From the IMG/VR virus record IMGVR_UViG_3300028569_000020, positions 30,543 to 94,542 of that record: a stretch of 64,000 nt of DNA. One strand, given 5' to 3'. Positions 4,501-57,059 of this stretch are shown here, piece after piece. Numbering within the stretch: the stretch's first letter is position 1; every line of letters starts with the position of its first letter. Origin of the DNA: a virus. The notes beneath the pieces are model-generated. The model did no database searches and was not told where the DNA came from. It worked only from the letters and a program-made list of their open reading frames with translations. The position numbers were made by a program, and so were the translations under genes.

Positions 4501-5997
4501 ATGGCAGCACCAACAATTAAATTCAAAAGGGGCTTGCAAGCAAATTTGCCTGCGTTGGCAGCTGGAGAACCAGCATTCGTAAGCGATGAATATAATTTTT
4601 ACTTGGGTCTAGATGGCAACGCTAACACTAACAAATTTTTTGGTAGTTCTAGATATTGGGTAAAAGAGACTGCTTCGGTTGGGCAGTCTGTTAAATTGCA
4701 CTCAAAAACTGGTGCTGGCGGCGGCGGCAGTGTTTTATTAAAAGCTCCAGATACATCAGCAGTAGATACTACATATACTCTTCCTGCTGCTCCTACAGAA
4801 AATTATTTTCTCAAAACTAATGCTAGTGGAGTCCTTACGTGGGCAGAAGTTGTAAGTAACTTAACTATTGCAGCTGATAGTGGCACAGCGGATAGTGTCA
4901 ACACAGGAGAAACTATTACGTTTACTGGTGGAGAAGGTATTGATACCTCAGTAACAAATAACGTAATTACTATTGCTGCAGAGTTAGCAACTAGTGCGAA
5001 TGCTGGTGTTGCTACTTTCTCTGCCACAGACTTTCTGGTTACTGCTGGAGATGTAACTCTTGTACACGAAGCAGTTCAAGATATCGTTGGTGCCATGGTG
5101 GTCTCCAACTCCGAATCTGGTATTTCTGTAACATATGATGATCCTAATCATAAGTTAGATTTCAACGTTGCTGATTTTACCGTTACTCTTGCTGGTGATT
5201 TGAGTGGTAGCGTAACTATCACCGATCTTGCCAGTGGCACTCTAACAGCAACAATCGTAGCAAATTCAGTTGCTCTTGGCACTGATACAACTGGTCAATA
5301 CGCTTCTACAATTAGTGGTGGATCTGGATTAACCGCAACAGATGCGGGTGCTGATGATGCCACTGCTTACACAATTGCGGTTGGTGCTGGTGAAGGTATT
5401 ACAGTTAATGCTGATGACGTTGCTTTAAAGAACGGCACCAACTTAGTAAATAATACTGTAATCGGTTGGGACGATACTAATAATCAATTAGTAAACTCAC
5501 CAGTTACTTACAGTAGTAACGATGTTGCGATTGCTGGTGACTTAACTGTTACTGGTAACGATATTAAATCAAGTGGTGGCACAACTGCCCTGACTCTTTC
5601 TGGAGCAAACGTAACAGTCGCTGGTAATCTCACGGTTTCTGGTAGCACAACTACTGTTAACTCAACCATCACAACATTTGATGACCCTGTTTTAGAATTG
5701 GGTTTGGTTTCTGGTAGTGCGCCTACGACGGCAACCTCAATTGACCTTGGTTTGAGATTCCACTATTATGATTCTTCTGCTAAGACATCTTCGATGTTTT
5801 GGGATGGAAACGCTGGATTTATCTTTGTAGATGCTACAACGGAAGCTGCTGGACCACAACTAACAGGCACGTTGGCACATGTCCAACTAAAAGGTCTTTG
5901 GATGGGTGCTTACGGCACCGCAACCAATCAAGTTTTGAATAATAACAGCGGCACCTTCGAGTTAATCAATACACTCGTTGATGGCGGTACATTCTAA
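4501..5997 (+). CDS. Tail fibre protein with Mtd_N-like N-terminus
   Basis: N-terminal IKFKRG...LAAGEP, T/G/A-rich shaft repeats, C-terminal DGGTF; late promoter AATAAATA at 4462. Confidence 0.7.
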   Translation: MAAPTIKFKRGLQANLPALAAGEPAFVSDEYNFYLGLDGNANTNKFFGSSRYWVKETASVGQSVKLHSKTGAGGGGSVLLKAPDTSAVDTTYTLPAAPTENYFLKTNASGVLTWAEVVSNLTIAADSGTADSVNTGETITFTGGEGIDTSVTNNVITIAAELATSANAGVATFSATDFLVTAGDVTLVHEAVQDIVGAMVVSNSESGISVTYDDPNHKLDFNVADFTVTLAGDLSGSVTITDLASGTLTATIVANSVALGTDTTGQYASTISGGSGLTATDAGADDATAYTIAVGAGEGITVNADDVALKNGTNLVNNTVIGWDDTNNQLVNSPVTYSSNDVAIAGDLTVTGNDIKSSGGTTALTLSGANVTVAGNLTVSGSTTTVNSTITTFDDPVLELGLVSGSAPTTATSIDLGLRFHYYDSSAKTSSMFWDGNAGFIFVDATTEAAGPQLTGTLAHVQLKGLWMGAYGTATNQVLNNNSGTFELINTLVDGGTF

Positions 5998-29728: not shown

Positions 29729-30859
29729 ATGTCCGATATGTTAAACGAAAAGTTTGGGGAATTTATTGCTGAAACTGGTGATCCAATGCCATCAGTTGGA
29801 AGTTCTGTTGTACCTGGTAGTGCCACCGCTAGTGGCTACATGAAACCAGTAACAGGTCAATCAAGCACAGCAGTAAATGCTAATGCTTCAAACGGAAAAG
29901 ATCCAATGCCAACAGTGCCAACTTCAGTTGTGCCTGGTCAATCAACAGAAGATGATGGTGGATCTACTTTTGAAAAACCAGAAGGCGAAGATAATCCTGG
30001 TGCTAAAGCAGCGTCACACAACAAAAAAGTTGCTGACGGTCATGTAACTCGTGACACTCATCAAGATCCAATGCCTTCTCTAAAATCATCAGGTTATCAA
30101 ATTCCAGGTGGACCTAATAATACCAAAGTATTTGGTATGGAAGAAATCGATTATTCATCTGATGATGACATCGAAGCTCTCGTAGAAGGAGAAGTAATTT
30201 CAGAGACATTCAAAGAAAAAGCAAAAACAATCTTTGAAGCTGCAGTCAAATCAAAAATTGCTGAGCAAGTAAATTCAATTCAAGAGCAATACACAAACAG
30301 ACTTTCGGAAGAAGTAGAAACCATTAAAGTTTCTCTTTCTGGAAAAGTAGATGAAGTCCTCAACTACGCTATTCAAAATTGGGTAGAAGAAAACGTAGTT
30401 GCCATCGATACAGGTCTCAAGCTAGAAATTGCTGAGAACTTTATGAGAGGTCTTAAATCAGTTTTTGAAGATAACTATCTCGATATTCCTGATGACAAAA
30501 TAGATGTTGTCGAATCATTGAATACCGAACTTTGTGAAATGGAGGAGCGCCTGACCGAACAGCTTGAGCGCAATATTGAATTACATAATCGTCTTTCTGG
30601 ATCTAGCAAAACTGTAATTTTAAATCAAATTTCTGAAGGTCTTGCTGATACACAAAAAGAAAAACTAGCTTCATTAGCAGAAGGTATTGAGTTTGTTTCG
30701 GAAGAAAATTTTGTTAAGAAACTTTCAACTCTTAAGGAATCATATTTCCCTAAATCTGTTACTAAAGAAATAGTAGACGAAACCCCAGTAGATGGTGAAG
30801 GTCAAGACCTGTCACCTTCAATGCAGTCCTACATGTCTGCCATTGCTCGCTGGTCATAA
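29729..30859 (+). CDS. gp22: Prohead scaffold gp22
   Basis: FKEKAKTIFEAAV; acidic coiled coil; KESYF; located between gp21 and gp23. Confidence 0.9.
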   Translation: MSDMLNEKFGEFIAETGDPMPSVGSSVVPGSATASGYMKPVTGQSSTAVNANASNGKDPMPTVPTSVVPGQSTEDDGGSTFEKPEGEDNPGAKAASHNKKVADGHVTRDTHQDPMPSLKSSGYQIPGGPNNTKVFGMEEIDYSSDDDIEALVEGEVISETFKEKAKTIFEAAVKSKIAEQVNSIQEQYTNRLSEEVETIKVSLSGKVDEVLNYAIQNWVEENVVAIDTGLKLEIAENFMRGLKSVFEDNYLDIPDDKIDVVESLNTELCEMEERLTEQLERNIELHNRLSGSSKTVILNQISEGLADTQKEKLASLAEGIEFVSEENFVKKLSTLKESYFPKSVTKEIVDETPVDGEGQDLSPSMQSYMSAIARWS

Positions 30860-52565: not shown

Positions 52566-52575
52566 TGCTATAATG

Positions 52576-52608
52576 GGGGTAACCTAAATAGAGGACAACC
52601 CCTTTTTT
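52576..52608 (+). terminator. Hairpin/terminator with late motif CTAAATA in its loop
   Basis: GGGGT..CCT-AAATAG-AGG..ACCCC-TTTTTT; preceded by TGCTATAAT. Confidence 0.55.
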
Positions 52609-52613
52609 CGTAG

Positions 52614-54389
52614 ATGGCTCAACAGAATAAACACCTAGAGCACTTAGAAGACGAGTTAATCAATTTTGGTTATAGCGGATATGTAGCTTCTAAGGACCTC
52701 ATACAGAATTTCATTGACGAGCTTGGTGGCCGTCCTACTGGTCGTGTGACCGTTACCACCAAGTGGGATGGCGCCCCTGCTATTGTTTGTGGTATTGATC
52801 CAGAATCCAAACAGTTTTTTGTAGGCACCAAGTCAGTATTTAATAAGAAAGAACCGAAGGTAAACTTCACTGACGAAGATATTGAAAAAAATCATGGAGA
52901 GATACCTGACCTTGCTAAGAAGCTTAAGCAATGTTTAAAGTATTTTCCAGAGCTTAAAATAAAAGGAGTGATACAGGGAGACCTTCTTTTTACTGATGAA
53001 GATGTAGCAAGTAAAACTATTGATGGGGAGCGTTACCATACTGCTACGCCAAACACGCTAACCTATGCTTGGCCTGCTGATAGCAAGTTAGGTAAGGCAG
53101 TAAATTCTGCTAAGATTGGAGCAGTGTTTCATACTTATTATAGTGGAGCTGGTCCTATCAATAATATGAATGCTGGATTTGGCGTGAGTCAGTTAAACCT
53201 GAAATCCACTCGTCATGTGTTTTTAGCATCTGCTACGATGGATAACATCAGTGCTAACTCTGGATTAACTCCTGCTGAAGAGCGCACCTTAAAATCTGTT
53301 ATCTCTGTAGGAAATCGTAATGTTGATACTGCTAAACCTTTTCTTGAATTGGTAGCACAGGAAGCAACTAAGCAGTTTACGATAGGATATACGATGAAGC
53401 GGTTTACTAACAGCTACATCAAAGAAGGAAAGAAGATTAATAATGTTAATCGTTTTATGGAGGGATTTGAAAAGGCATTTAAAAAATCTCTCGTTGAAAA
53501 AGTAGATGATTTAAAGTCTGAAAAATCTAAGAATGAATACCGAGAAAAGCTAGCGAATGGTCTTCAATTACTTGGAGCAAATCAGCGGTCGTTTAAGGCA
53601 TTCATTGTTATCTACAATTCATTTACTAACGCTAAAAATCTTATTAACAATAAACTTGCTGGTCTGAGTGACACTAAAGTATTTCTGCGTAGTGGTGATA
53701 CTTTTGTAGTTACCAAACCAGAAGGATTTGTGGCGATTGTTGACGGTCAAGCAATTAAAATTGTTGATCGCTTGGAATTTTCTCGTGCTAACTTCACGCT
53801 GGAGAAGTCTTGGAAACCTCCTACTACTTCTGGTGCTAAGATTGCTGCGTTTACTTTTGGTCGTTTTAATCCTCCTACGACGGGACATGAGTTATTGATA
53901 AATAAAGTCAAGGAGTTTGCCGCTGGGAATGACTACTTTGTTTTTCCTAGTCATACTACTGACAAGAAAGGTAAGAATCCTTTGACCGCAGAGCAAAAAG
54001 TATATCTTATGAAAGAGATGTTTCCTTCTCATAAGGATAACATCATTTTAGATGAAGCTATTCGTGACGCTATCAAAGCTCTCAAGTGGCTTGAAGATAA
54101 AGGATATACCGATGCTATCTTTGTAGTTGGTTCTGATCGTGTGACCGCATTTCAATTTATCAAACAATATAATGGTAAAGATTACAATATGAATACTGTT
54201 GAGATTAGAAGTGCTGGTGAGCGTGATCCAGATGCCGATGATGTATCTGGTATGTCTGCAAGCAAGATGAGAAAGGCAATCGTTGAAGCAGATATGGTAA
54301 CTTTTGAGAGTGGATTGTCAAGCAGTGTTAAAAATAATAGTGAATTTAAGACGATGTATTATCAAGCAGTGTTGGGGGGAATGTCCTAA
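52614..54389 (+). CDS. Fusion protein: KxDG ligase-like nucleotidyltransferase domain plus HxGH cytidylyltransferase/NMNAT-like domain
   Basis: N-terminal part TKWDGAP, QGDLLF, PEGFV, AIKIVD; C-terminal part FGRFNPPTTGH, VVGSDR, MSASKMR. Confidence 0.7.
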   Translation: MAQQNKHLEHLEDELINFGYSGYVASKDLIQNFIDELGGRPTGRVTVTTKWDGAPAIVCGIDPESKQFFVGTKSVFNKKEPKVNFTDEDIEKNHGEIPDLAKKLKQCLKYFPELKIKGVIQGDLLFTDEDVASKTIDGERYHTATPNTLTYAWPADSKLGKAVNSAKIGAVFHTYYSGAGPINNMNAGFGVSQLNLKSTRHVFLASATMDNISANSGLTPAEERTLKSVISVGNRNVDTAKPFLELVAQEATKQFTIGYTMKRFTNSYIKEGKKINNVNRFMEGFEKAFKKSLVEKVDDLKSEKSKNEYREKLANGLQLLGANQRSFKAFIVIYNSFTNAKNLINNKLAGLSDTKVFLRSGDTFVVTKPEGFVAIVDGQAIKIVDRLEFSRANFTLEKSWKPPTTSGAKIAAFTFGRFNPPTTGHELLINKVKEFAAGNDYFVFPSHTTDKKGKNPLTAEQKVYLMKEMFPSHKDNIILDEAIRDAIKALKWLEDKGYTDAIFVVGSDRVTAFQFIKQYNGKDYNMNTVEIRSAGERDPDADDVSGMSASKMRKAIVEADMVTFESGLSSSVKNNSEFKTMYYQAVLGGMS

Positions 54390-56161
54390 TGTCACAATTT
54401 AATTTAAGAAAAGAAACAAGAGATGTTTCTAATTTTATAGATATGGATATTGTAGCATTAAAGTTTAGGCGTATTCATGGAATGATTCGTGTAGCTGCTG
54501 CTAATGCATTCAATAGTCATTATGGAGAAGTAAAAGGATTTGAATATGAAATTGAAGGTGGTGACGGTATAACAGATTCCTCACCTATATTAGAAATTAA
54601 TAAAAAATTTGAAGGTGGCAGATCAACATCTTTGAAATATAAAATTACTTGTGATAATGGAATTCCAGAGTATTGTGATTTGTATTTTAGAACGCCGAGA
54701 GCAGATTTCATTAATCATATGATTTCCTTTATCAATAAAAGAAATGATTTGAAGAATGCAGTTGGTATTACAAACGTGGAATTGAAGACAGAAGATGGGG
54801 GCAAAAATCCTACTTTGTTTATTAAAATGTTACACAGCTATCCTGGATTGGATAAGAAAGGGAAAAAAGTTACCAAGTATTCAACTATCAATTTAAACTT
54901 TTCTCTTAAGTATGCTGGGAAAGATAATAATGCTAAGGCACTTGCCACACTTAAACCAAAGGATGTTGAACCTAAAATTGTTGATGTTTGGTTGACTCCA
55001 GAATTGTTGTATGATAATATAATATCTTATGTTGATGGCAATAAATTTCCATCACAAAGCAATTCATTAAAACAATCTTATAAGAATATTATTATTGATG
55101 CGTATACTAATAAATCTTTGAAAGATAAAGTTGGTATAGCGGCAGATTTATCTTCAGAATTTTTTGAAGTATTATCTGCATTGAAATTAAGTATGCTATT
55201 GAAAGCAAATGTCACAGAATTAAAACAAACACTTGGATTGTCAGATGATGAGACAGTCAAATCAATAGAAGTTAAAATACCAGCAGCAGCAAACGAAGCA
55301 TTGATAGATTATTTTGTTGCAGTGAATGGTAACAAGGAGCATCCATTGCGGATAAGCGTCAAATCAAAAGTGCGGGGATCTTCAACTTCTACAGTTAAAT
55401 TTACAACCGCTTTTGTAAATGAAAGAGAAGTATTACAATGGTTTAATAATATTAAATCAACAGTAACAAAAAATAAACAACTTGGTCAATATACCATTGC
55501 TTCATCTGCTTTGAATTATGATAAAAAGTATTCTGGTAGATTAACAATGTATCCTATCAAAGGATTGCTTCGTCTTTTAACTGGACCTAAATCATCTACA
55601 GTAAGACAAGATTTAAACAGAGTTTTAGATTTGAAAGGATTTACTATTTCTGATTTTATTGATTTACTTAAAAAGACAGATAAAAAAATGGGCACACTAA
55701 AAGTAAATTACGAACCATTTGATAATATTTTTTTAAAAGATTTAGATTTACTAACTAAAGTTAAAACATTACTGGCGCTTAACATTTATGATGAAGGGAG
55801 CAAGAAAAAAAAATTGATTGAATCAATATCATTATCGCAGAAAGAAGCTGCTAAAAAAAATAATGGCAAGTATCCTTTCGCTGTAAATAATTTAGCTTTA
55901 CTATGCGAAAGAGTGCTGGTAGAAACTTCAAAGAAAGACGGACAAACTAAATTAAATTTTTATAAAATGTTTTATGACCAAGTGCTTACAAAAAATCAAG
56001 TAGCATATGCTATGACAAGTAGAGACACTAAAGGTGACGTAGTAAAATTAGAATACTCATTTGTTAGTGCAGTTGACTTTGGTAAATATAAAAACTGGAT
56101 TGCACTAAGAAGTAAAAATTATGGCAACAATATGCAAGACGCACTAGGAATGGCAGTATGA
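54389..56161 (+). CDS. Large basic hypothetical, probable PD-(D/E)xK nuclease fold
   Basis: EFFEVLS...IPAAANEALID...ISVK; Lys-rich; TAATG-coupled to the previous gene. Confidence 0.5.
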   Translation: MSQFNLRKETRDVSNFIDMDIVALKFRRIHGMIRVAAANAFNSHYGEVKGFEYEIEGGDGITDSSPILEINKKFEGGRSTSLKYKITCDNGIPEYCDLYFRTPRADFINHMISFINKRNDLKNAVGITNVELKTEDGGKNPTLFIKMLHSYPGLDKKGKKVTKYSTINLNFSLKYAGKDNNAKALATLKPKDVEPKIVDVWLTPELLYDNIISYVDGNKFPSQSNSLKQSYKNIIIDAYTNKSLKDKVGIAADLSSEFFEVLSALKLSMLLKANVTELKQTLGLSDDETVKSIEVKIPAAANEALIDYFVAVNGNKEHPLRISVKSKVRGSSTSTVKFTTAFVNEREVLQWFNNIKSTVTKNKQLGQYTIASSALNYDKKYSGRLTMYPIKGLLRLLTGPKSSTVRQDLNRVLDLKGFTISDFIDLLKKTDKKMGTLKVNYEPFDNIFLKDLDLLTKVKTLLALNIYDEGSKKKKLIESISLSQKEAAKKNNGKYPFAVNNLALLCERVLVETSKKDGQTKLNFYKMFYDQVLTKNQVAYAMTSRDTKGDVVKLEYSFVSAVDFGKYKNWIALRSKNYGNNMQDALGMAV

Positions 56162-56442
56162 AATCACTCAAAGAATTATTACAAATATCTAAACAGAAAG
56201 CATACATGCTCGGCAATATGTTTGCTGAAGGCGATATTATTAAAAACACAAACGGACAAGTAGGAAAGATTCATAGACGTGGAGTTAACTATGTTATTGC
56301 TGTCACTGAAGAAGGCGAGATGTTTAGAACTTGGGTGAAGGATATTAAAGAACATTGTGGGTGTGAAGAAAAAAAAGAAACTACAGCACAAGATACAATC
56401 AAGACATTTATAAATAAGAATAAAAGGCAGCCTAAAAAATGA
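56158..56442 (+). CDS. Small hypothetical (SH3/KOW-like G.IHRRGVNYVI...FR.W..DI.E)
   Basis: ATGA coupled; MKSLKEL N-terminus. Confidence 0.65.
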   Translation: MKSLKELLQISKQKAYMLGNMFAEGDIIKNTNGQVGKIHRRGVNYVIAVTEEGEMFRTWVKDIKEHCGCEEKKETTAQDTIKTFINKNKRQPKK

Positions 56443-57059
56443 AACCTCTTCACCACGATGATTACTCCAAAACATTAATGGAGAGAGCTATTGCTAATAT
56501 GACTGACATGTGGTCTTATGGCATAAACGAAGACGATAAAAAATGTTGCAATAAAACTGGTGCTGGTAGTTCATGCCCGATGCATGGAGATGCAGATTGC
56601 AATTCTTCTAAAAAAAATAGGAAAGAAGAATTTGAAATTTTAGAATATCATGAAATTGAAGTTGATGGGGAAACCATTATTATTGAAAAAACTAAAATGG
56701 ATGGCGTTGATGATAACGGATCTAAGACATGCTGGAAAGGATATAAGAAGCAAGGCACCAAAAGTAAAGGTGGTAAAGAAGTTAATAATTGTGTGAAATC
56801 TGGATACGAACCAGAAGGAGATACGATTGAAGAAAAGAAAGATATGCCTGGTGGTCAAGAGAAGATTGATGCTAACAAAAATGGTAAGGTAGACGCTCAT
56901 GACTTTGCAATTCTTCGCAATAAAAGAAGCAAAAAAACAGTAAAGGAAATGTGGGAGCTTGCTGTAGAAGCAAAAGCACAAATTGAAGTGATGCCCGAGT
57001 TAGATGATAAAGATCCAGCTAACGTAAAGAAGAAAGAAAAGAAAGAAAAAAGTTGTTAA
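56439..57059 (+). CDS. Modular Cys/Glu-rich hypothetical (possible processed head-internal protein)
   Basis: CNK..AG..CPMHG..DC; CWKGYK...NCV; YEPEG; DANKNGKVDAHDF; TATAAATA at 56409. Confidence 0.65.
   Translation: MKPLHHDDYSKTLMERAIANMTDMWSYGINEDDKKCCNKTGAGSSCPMHGDADCNSSKKNRKEEFEILEYHEIEVDGETIIIEKTKMDGVDDNGSKTCWKGYKKQGTKSKGGKEVNNCVKSGYEPEGDTIEEKKDMPGGQEKIDANKNGKVDAHDFAILRNKRSKKTVKEMWELAVEAKAQIEVMPELDDKDPANVKKKEKKEKSC

Follow-up and report, generated by a model that had tools for sequence, protein, structure and literature searches.

A DUF6267 domain fused to a TxGH adenylyltransferase domain: a candidate nucleic-acid end-processing protein of a T4-like cyanophage

A fusion gene of the DUF6267 family

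The stretch of viral DNA analysed here, called the window below, comprises 64,000 nucleotides (nt) (positions 30,543 to 94,542 of the IMG/VR record IMGVR_UViG_3300028569_000020). On its plus strand it carries a 591-amino acid (aa) open reading frame (ORF) that starts with ATG and joins a DUF6267 domain to an adenylyltransferase domain. An initial annotation, made from the letters alone, had described this ORF as a ligase/capping-type KxDG domain fused to an HxGH nucleotidyltransferase. The ORF and every motif named in that annotation were recovered where it had placed them, or at most 3 nt away. The agreement of motifs and domain matches with that description goes far beyond chance, which confirms it at the level of sequence. 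The gene is organised as follows:

52614..54389, plus strand: whole fusion ORF, consisting of the DUF6267 ligase-like domain, a short linker and the TxGH adenylyltransferase domain (Pfam, PHROGs, motifs)
52614..53813, plus strand: N-terminal domain (aa 1-400), DUF6267, with a predicted ligase-type covalent nucleotidyltransferase fold
53814..53840, plus strand: linker KPPTTSGAK (aa 401-409), at the place where unfused homologues have their stop/start junction
53841..54386, plus strand: C-terminal TxGH/SxxxxR nucleotidyltransferase domain (aa ~410-591), nearest to NMNAT, NadD and PPAT (Pfam PF01467, PHROG, PDB profile search, AlphaFold2, Foldseek)

The Pfam family DUF6267 (PF19782) matched aa 5-398 with an E-value of 8e-109 and 364.9 bits (cut-off 27) over profile positions 1-376 of 376. 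PHROGs assigned the fusion protein to phrog_455 (unknown function) and to the 'cytidyltransferase' phrogs 3041 and 395. Its nearest homologue in an isolate is d138 of Synechococcus phage S-PM2, which is likewise fused and shows 81% identity. Since the neighbouring genes match as well, the window can be regarded as part of an S-PM2-like T4-type cyanomyovirus; its source record is a 94.5-kb fragment with an estimated completeness of 50%.

The gene had been put forward as a novel candidate. It is, however, not peculiar to the window, being the orthologue of S-PM2 d138, and its family comprises over 2000 clusters at 50% identity. Nor is the sequence itself new: Pfam already lists DUF6267 as a family, and GenBank has contained the fused gene from the sequencing of S-PM2 onwards. 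A query with the N-terminal domain returned 2254 clusters at 50% identity, mostly free-standing proteins of ~400 aa, and a search of 5.8 billion proteins revealed thousands of fused homologues in marine metagenomes. Named proteins among the latter are called 'hypothetical' or 'NMN/NaMN adenylyltransferase', and the orthologues in S-PM2 (d138), Syn9 and S-SZBM1 are annotated just as 'hypothetical' or 'cytitidyltransferase', in keeping with what had been claimed of such genes. In the literature we found no paper that names DUF6267 or places the cyanophage gene in the ligase superfamily, and likewise none for 'cytitidyltransferase'.

Conservation and predicted fold of the DUF6267 domain

Conservation was counted in an alignment (A1) of 103 DUF6267 representatives with 31-40% identity to the query. 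The following elements were located in the N-terminal domain:

52632..52652, plus strand: N-terminal peptide HLEHLED with H7 (100/103), H10 (103/103) and E12 (95/103)
52758..52772, plus strand: motif I T-K-W-D-G (aa 49-53, K50 codon at 52761) with K50 and D52 (103/103 each) and G53 (102/103)
52824..52835, plus strand: G-T-K-S, a possible motif Ia 23 residues past K50, with K73 (102/103)
52971..52991, plus strand: motif III-like strand IQGDLLF (aa 120-126) with Q121 (100/103), G122 (101/103) and D123 (102/103, plus one Glu)
53271..53660, plus strand: five-helix insertion (aa ~220-349), located after the motif IIIa region and before motif IV, with conserved N266 and K341 (AlphaFold2 secondary structure)
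53718..53732, plus strand: motif IV P-E-G-F-V (aa 369-373) with E370 (102/103) and G371 (103/103)
53751..53765, plus strand: motif V-like A-I-K-I-V (aa 380-384), followed by D385, R386, F389 and S390, with K382 (103/103) and R386 (101/103)

H10, K50, D52, F68, Y151, H173, G371 and K382 are invariant in A1, and D123, E370, K73, K341 and R386 are kept in 101-102 of the 103 sequences. Loss of the KWDG lysine or the EGFV glutamate in homologues had been named in advance as an argument against the proposal; the two residues are retained in 103/103 and 102/103 homologues, respectively. Conservation of the Lys, Asp, Glu-Gly and Lys residues in 102-103 of 103 proteins at 31-40% identity suggests selection on catalysis. 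From their motifs, K50 is predicted to be the nucleotidyl-accepting lysine, D52 a metal ligand, D123 (on beta-strand 119-127 of the AlphaFold2 model) the ribose/metal-binding acid and E370 a catalytic-metal ligand, while K382 is predicted to contact the alpha/gamma-phosphate. G-T-K-S is a possible motif Ia that would contact a polynucleotide phosphate; in T4 Rnl2 an invariant K54-R55 pair lies 20 residues after K35, compared with 23 residues between K50 and K73. The HLEHLED peptide may close over the nucleotide site.

The sequences annotated initially as motifs I, III, IV and V are present. The GAVFH sequence (aa 169-173), which had been proposed as motif IIIa, could not be confirmed in that role, and spacing favours position 144 (nt 53043-53045). 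An aromatic residue, F144, occupies this position in 96% of homologues, 21 residues past D123, and would by spacing be the adenine-stacking motif IIIa residue. The window protein has Ala here, and the S-PM2-like lineage Ala or Val; Y151 and H173 are invariant alternatives. One DUF6267 cluster representative, P0171 (314 aa), keeps motifs I, III, IV and V and lacks the motif IIIa region (~aa 128-215), through either a natural deletion or an error of assembly.

An AlphaFold2 model of the DUF6267 domain, computed without templates from A1, reached a predicted local distance difference test (pLDDT) score of 94.8 and a predicted template modelling score of 0.92. It contains beta-sheet regions at aa 46-205 and 355-383 that are parted by the five-helix insertion. 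Only helical-bundle structures match aa 217-350, and the matched ligase structures do not have this insertion, which is shorter in Syn9 gp183 (320 aa; gaps in the alignment). In a structure comparison, 19 of 50 rows were ligases and the remainder short helical matches to the insert; in a second comparison the top 22 rows were ligases throughout. The top structural neighbours were RNA ligases (Rnl5, Trl1, Rnl2, REL1, Rnl3 and Rnl1), accompanied by many DNA ligases, and T4 Rnl2 aligned with residues 3..234 to residues 3..392 of the query. The rows listed for the two comparisons contained no capping enzyme, although such a listing does not by itself exclude that family. The Pfam family RNA_lig_T4_1 (PF09511) gave sub-threshold matches in 3/103 A1 members (best E 6e-4), and in the homologue L044 it matched the motif IV-V region with profile positions 145-210 (E 0.0016). 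Among the language-model neighbours of DUF6267, the first to carry a Pfam family was RNA_ligase (score 0.75), which we treat as a lead only.

The model and the structural matches bear out the ligase-type nucleotidyltransferase fold that had been expected of the N-terminal domain. DUF6267 is thus very probably a highly divergent ligase-type covalent nucleotidyltransferase with a family-specific helical insert and no OB domain, and, as judged from the model, its nearest structural relatives are the ATP-dependent RNA ligases.

Some further matches involve helical regions. Foldseek rows for CagA, Rad50 and CorA were discounted, as they arise from long helices, and PDB matches to ribosomal protein eS8 were rejected as compositional (low-complexity, Lys-rich helical region). 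Sub-threshold matches to Pfam SWI2_SNF2 (PF18766) occurred in 10/103 A1 members (best E 2e-4); their source may be the Lys-rich helical insert.

The RNA ligase of Naegleria gruberi (NgrRnl; Rnl5 family, PDB 5cot/5cou) uses K170 as nucleophile, and the roles of K170-x-D172, E227, E312 and K326 are established (PMC7261155). It shares the K-x-D-G motif I with DUF6267, and the acids of motifs I, III and IV and the lysine of motif V follow in the same order. Motifs IV and V are 12 residues apart in DUF6267 (E370-K382) and 14 in NgrRnl (E312-K326), whereas the E227-F248 spacing of 21 residues equals that between D123 and F144 in the family. Identity is merely 9-12%. In contrast to NgrRnl, which has an N-terminal OB domain touching the ATP gamma-phosphate, DUF6267 has no such domain; it displays instead a 130-residue helical insert before motif IV and, at its N-terminus, the conserved HLEH peptide. 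In motif III the acid is Asp in DUF6267 and Glu in NgrRnl, and NgrRnl has no HxGH partner.

T4 Rnl2 (PDB 2hvq/1s68), T4 Rnl1 and the ligase domain of fungal Trl1 resemble DUF6267 in motifs IV and V, with EG-aromatic-V followed by A-I-K, but the C-terminal domain of Rnl2 (PF18043) and that of the Rnl1 type are missing from DUF6267. DNA ligases (T4 gp30, Chlorella virus ligase, Lig1 and the NAD-dependent LigA) have the KxDG motif I in common with DUF6267, whose gene lies in the replication module of phages in which these ligases are missing. They differ from it by their OB domain, DUF6267 gave no PF01068 or PF01653 signal, and they score structurally below the RNA ligases.

The adenylyltransferase domain, its linkage and distribution

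The C-terminal domain carries both signatures of its class; conservation refers to 46 domain sequences:

53856..53888, plus strand: FGRFNPPTTGH (aa 415-425), the (H/T)xGH ATP-binding signature with Thr in first place; G424 and H425 invariant
54252..54272, plus strand: MSASKMR (aa 547-553), the SxxxxR signature of HxGH transferases; S548 invariant, K551 and R553 in at least 90%

Residues F, R, F, P, P and T of the first signature are kept in at least 90% of the sequences, and family-specific invariant residues lie in the motifs NPL, GSDR and SAGERDPDA. Pfam CTP_transf_like (PF01467) matched aa 414-553 (E 2.4e-7, 31.5 bits, cut-off 21). A profile of fused homologues searched against the PDB detected the MJ0541 NMNAT (6e-5), NaMNAT (6.3e-5), NadR (1.5e-4) and PPAT (8.6e-4), and a phmmer search of the PDB with the whole protein yielded only weak matches, to NaMNAT and confined to the C-terminal domain. 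The AlphaFold2 model of aa 401-591 (pLDDT 94.2) matched NadD, PPAT and NMNAT in Foldseek with E-values of 1.2e-5 to 3e-4 and a probability of 1.0. Pfam, the PDB profile search and Foldseek agree in this, and the HxGH-class domain that had been described, here with TxGH, is intact. On these matches the domain is an HxGH-class adenylyltransferase, most similar to NMNAT.

NMNAT and NaMNAT (MJ0541, NadR, NadD) and PPAT (CoaD) share with it the Rossmann-like HxGH fold, G-R-F-x-P...GH and SxxxxR. Differences are the low identity (12-18%), Thr in place of the first His, and its own NPL, GSDR and SAGERDPDA motifs. Unlike NMNAT and PPAT, it is always tied to DUF6267 and not to NAD-salvage genes. The NMNAT equivalog models of NCBIfam stayed below their cut-offs (TIGR01526, 24 vs 341 bits; TIGR00482, 21 vs 112; NF006479, 15.8 vs 164). 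The domain lies outside the curated NMNAT families and may work in an NMNAT-like manner.

To compare neighbourhoods, we surveyed the 80 IMG/VR loci recovered with the DUF6267 alignment. Two of them were fused and 53 had an HxGH domain downstream on the same strand; it was never found upstream, and only 7 loci with at least 3 kb of downstream flank were devoid of it. Among 150 representatives of 50%-identity clusters, ten fusions had the order ligase-then-HxGH and eight the order HxGH-then-ligase. That the two domains became fused in either order, in separate lineages, strongly supports their action in one pathway. The proposed survey of fused versus split homologues thus revealed both forms, and in most marine T4-like phages the two domains are encoded by adjacent genes. 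Syn9 (gp183 and gp184) and S-SZBM1 (gp135 and gp136) have them as neighbouring genes after gp41 and mazG, and Stenotrophomonas phage DLP6 in genes 066 and 068. In Syn9, the alignment places the end of gp183 at ...KNW, where gp184 begins; in the locus L015 the two reading frames overlap by 7 nt (4513-4519).

In some relatives the HxGH partner is a multidomain protein of 700-1140 aa that includes a Pol-beta or a kinase domain:

Multidomain HxGH partners: L048:8891-11248, L055:2814-5426, L035:6022-8535, L019:8428-10830; L030:7183-9921; L068:8546-11974

An N-terminal Pol-beta nucleotidyltransferase domain (NTP_transf_2/Polbeta) was fused to the partner in 17 cases, and 19 loci matched its profile. 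Other partner ORFs carry an AAA_33/Zeta_toxin P-loop kinase, joined in L068 by a C-terminal DUF6321. A profile search of the window revealed no kinase or Pol-beta homologue of these types. Pol-beta and kinase companions make up the enzyme repertoire of RNA heal-and-seal systems.

DUF6267 occurs in ~450 sequenced cyanomyovirus records; 370 Synechococcus phage records contain it and 375 match the whole fusion protein. It is absent from 14/14 control genomes, and its language-model clusters consist of 96-100% viral taxa. T4-like cyanophages and pelagiphages, which rank with the most abundant viruses of the ocean, are described as lacking a ligase. In the complete genomes of S-PM2 and Syn9 and in two complete DUF6267-bearing IMG/VR genomes, no match to PF01068 (DNA_ligase_A_M), PF01653 (DNA_ligase_aden) or PF09414 (RNA_ligase) was found; the two IMG/VR genomes also gave none to PF09511 (RNA_lig_T4_1), and the window's own record none to PF01068. 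T4, conversely, has gp30, Rnl1 and Rnl2 and no DUF6267. A tblastn search with T4 gp30 detected 2644 phage records, with Synechococcus outside the ten commonest names. The DUF6267-HxGH pair is a core module of ocean phages without a recognisable ligase. Petrov et al. assign gp30 to the quasi-core genes, a set in which many members are missing from at least one marine cyanophage (PMC2993671).

Mass spectrometry of S-SZBM1 virions identified a 362-aa 'cytidylyltransferase', the unfused partner, and the 457-aa protein encoded beside it, while the DUF6267 protein was not listed among the virion proteins (PMC9146016). Virions of S-CREM2 also contained a cytidylyltransferase; its authors report that such proteins are often detected in cyanophage virions, and caution about carry-over during purification (PMC10665884). 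Delivery with the virion, which had been suggested for the fusion protein, gains only indirect support from the detection of the unfused HxGH partner in both phages; the ligase-like protein is absent from the list, and the late motif upstream of the gene is imperfect. A T4-style capsid-targeting or prohead-protease site was also looked for in the fusion protein, and by eye neither HLEHLEDE at the N-terminus nor NFTLEK at the linker contains (L/I)-x-E.

Proposed function and neighbouring genes

We consider it fairly probable that the gene product unites two enzymes and belongs to a phage-specific module for nucleic-acid end joining or end modification. From the predicted folds, the conservation, the linkage and the fusions we infer the chemistry, the substrate (RNA or DNA) and the coupling of the two activities as follows. 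K50 would attack ATP (or an ADP-linked donor) at its alpha-phosphate, giving lysyl-AMP, with D52, D123 and E370 holding the catalytic metal and K382 contacting the phosphates. The AMP would then be handed to a polynucleotide 5'-phosphate end, and attack by a 3'-OH would seal the break. The five-helix insertion, in place of the OB or accessory domain of other ligases, probably grips the polynucleotide. The C-terminal domain would join AMP from ATP to a phosphorylated acceptor, most likely one resembling nicotinamide mononucleotide (NMN), with release of pyrophosphate. Both activities would belong to one pathway, in which the adenylyltransferase may supply or regenerate the adenylyl donor or process the same substrate. 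The structural neighbours and the companion kinase and Pol-beta domains speak for RNA as substrate, the gene position and the missing gp30 for DNA.

A number of observations count against this proposal. Foldseek against the PDB gave the DUF6267 model no match at E ≤0.001, with DNA ligases and T4 Rnl2 at a sub-significant E of 0.2-0.9. The hhalign comparison with Rnl2, for which the Rnl2 alignment was shallow (20 sequences, ≥55% identity), was not significant (E 0.28, or 0.15 without the helical insert), and hmmsearch of the DUF6267 profile against the PDB found no ligase. Because the profile-profile comparison with Rnl2 is not significant, ligase homology rests on fold and motifs, and the equivalence of K50 to the catalytic lysine on motif order, spacing and aligned ranges. 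An OB domain is missing: the helix 386-395 after motif V leads directly to the linker and the HxGH domain, the model begins at the nucleotidyltransferase domain with no N-terminal OB of the Rnl5 type, and the protein matched neither PF18043 nor PF09414. The motif III acid is Asp and not the usual Glu, motif V has a single Lys and not KxK, and the Phe at the family's motif IIIa position is replaced by Ala. DLP6 has both DUF6267 and a gp30-type DNA ligase, so DUF6267 is not simply a ligase substitute. To our knowledge, HxGH enzymes act on small molecules and not on polynucleotides, which makes the logic of the coupling speculative.

A special case of the proposed module, and a possible though tentative one, is RNA repair against host anticodon nucleases or other RNases, as a marine counterpart of T4 Rnl1/Rnl2 and Pnkp in which, in other lineages, end-healing kinase and Pol-beta domains would come from the partner gene. 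RNA ligases are the top structural neighbours, and RNA_lig_T4_1 gave the sub-threshold sequence matches. RNA ligases travel with kinase- and nucleotidyltransferase-type enzymes (PMC7824862), which fits the AAA_33/Zeta-type kinase and Pol-beta domains that relatives fuse to the partner. T4 has Rnl1 and Rnl2 without DUF6267, and these cyanophages have DUF6267 without an Rnl2 family match. On the other hand, the window has neither a kinase nor a Pol-beta homologue, no phosphoesterase was identified there, and the Pol-beta domain does not belong to the RlaP family (PF10127). HxGH enzymes have no known role in RNA repair, and the kinase might just as well act on a small molecule, in the manner of NadR.

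We regard it as unlikely that the gene encodes the DNA ligase for replication and recombination that marine T4-like phages seem to lack, an enzyme using nicotinamide adenine dinucleotide (NAD+) like LigA, with the NMNAT-like domain rebuilding NAD+ from NMN and ATP. Chemically, NAD+ is an AMP-phosphate-nucleoside, and this would account for the coupling of the two domains; by sequence the C-terminal domain is nearest to NMNATs of the archaeal and NadR type. The equivalog scores of 24 vs 341 and 21 vs 112 bits are, however, far under the NMNAT cut-offs, and DUF6267 has no OB domain, no LigA domain Ia and no PF01653 match. The gene lies after gp43, uvsX and gp41, and no ATP- or NAD-dependent DNA ligase family was found in the four complete DUF6267 genomes. 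The quasi-core status of gp30, with many such genes absent from some marine cyanophages (PMC2993671), agrees with this, and Synechococcus is not among the ten commonest names for gp30 yet accounts for 370 DUF6267 records. Set against this distribution, DLP6 has gp30 together with DUF6267, and dependence on the host LigA is an adequate alternative.

The proposed end-processing module can also be taken further, to DUF6267 as a new polynucleotide ligase family that is the sole ligase of marine T4-like phages, draws AMP from NAD+ or another dinucleotide made on site by the NMNAT-like partner, and belongs to a module of which at least a portion travels in the capsid to act on the incoming genome or on host RNA within the first minutes of infection. 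We think this quite unlikely.

A role mainly in nucleotide-cofactor metabolism seems distinctly improbable. The protein would, for example, make NAD+ or a related dinucleotide at the start of infection against an NAD-depleting defence, and the substrate of DUF6267 would be a small molecule or a protein and not a polynucleotide. In NadR the NMNAT domain precedes the kinase, an order mirrored in L068, where a kinase is fused after the HxGH domain. The C-terminal domain also resembles NMNAT and NadR, although its NMNAT equivalog scores are far under threshold; its partner form was detected in virions, and mazG adjoins. No Nampt, NadV or ADPR-PP-type gene was identified beside the fusion gene, however, and DUF6267 conserves all ligase motifs, including the candidate polynucleotide-binding motif Ia. 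A catalytically dead scaffolding or structural virion component with a ligase-like shape, as the large helical insert, the head or virion proteins encoded downstream and the motif IIIa Phe lost in the S-PM2-like lineage might suggest, is extremely improbable given the catalytic Lys, Asp, Glu-Gly and Lys kept in 102-103/103 proteins at 31-40% identity and a DUF6267 protein that is not among the reported S-SZBM1 virion proteins.

For a lysine-nucleotidylating enzyme fused to an NMNAT/PPAT-type adenylyltransferase, an unusual combination, we found no characterised precedent, and the recurrent fusion hints at coupled cofactor-supply or end-activation chemistry. If DUF6267 is an active ligase, it would fill a long-standing gap in the replication or repair machinery of marine T4-like phages. 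It would also represent a new architecture in the superfamily, in which the OB domain is missing, a helical insert is present and an HxGH partner is obligatory. New ligases are valuable as molecular-biology reagents, and DUF6267 may be useful in this way.

The genes for gp43, a UvsX/RecA homologue (uvsX), the gp41/DnaB helicase and MazG (mazG) all lie upstream of the fusion gene, and in S-PM2 and Syn9 head or virion proteins are encoded downstream of the module. The surroundings of the gene in the window contain the following features:

52574..52608, plus strand: hairpin GGGGGT...ACCCC followed by TTTTTT, with a TAAATA box in the loop, between mazG and the fusion gene (sequence; RNAfold -12.4 kcal/mol)
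54389..56161, plus strand: 590-aa lineage-specific ORF whose start overlaps the fusion stop (48 clusters, all S-PM2-like)
56158..56442, plus strand: 94-aa ORF homologous to the domain after HxGH in unfused partners (BLASTP E 7e-12 to Syn9 gp184 aa 285-338)

The late-type motif that had been noted upstream of the gene is present in part only: CCTAAATAG in the hairpin loop, before the T-run, agrees with 6/8 bases of TATAAATA. The TAA stop of the fusion gene and the ATG of the next ORF overlap as TAATG. The order of the module in the window is fusion gene, inserted 590-aa gene (1.8 kb) and 94-aa ORF; since the latter is homologous to the domain that follows HxGH in unfused partners, we count it as part of the same module. 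It matched the profile of this C-terminal extension with an E-value of 1.6e-17, and a homologue occurs in 34/80 loci, in some of them free-standing and in others forming the end of the HxGH ORF. Pfam gave no match for the 94-aa ORF, and none for the module-adjacent ORFs gp182 (Syn9), gp134 (S-SZBM1) and AAY80_065 (DLP6) upstream or S-SZBM1 gp137 downstream.

For the 590-aa ORF, searches of Pfam, NCBIfam, PDB sequences and PDB profiles returned no match, and it shows no similarity to Syn9 gp182 or gp185. Its language-model neighbours are the R.HinP1I, MspI and HaeIII families (0.87-0.89; a lead only). It is possibly a restriction-endonuclease-like nuclease, and its conserved SE-x-FE, NE-x-L-x-DY and SVK motifs would fit a PD-(D/E)xK-like core.

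A 206-aa Cys- and Lys-rich ORF (56439-57059, plus strand) shows weak Dockerin_1/EF-hand-like (DANKNGKVDAHD) and DUF7201 matches, and its homologues follow the module in 20/80 related loci.

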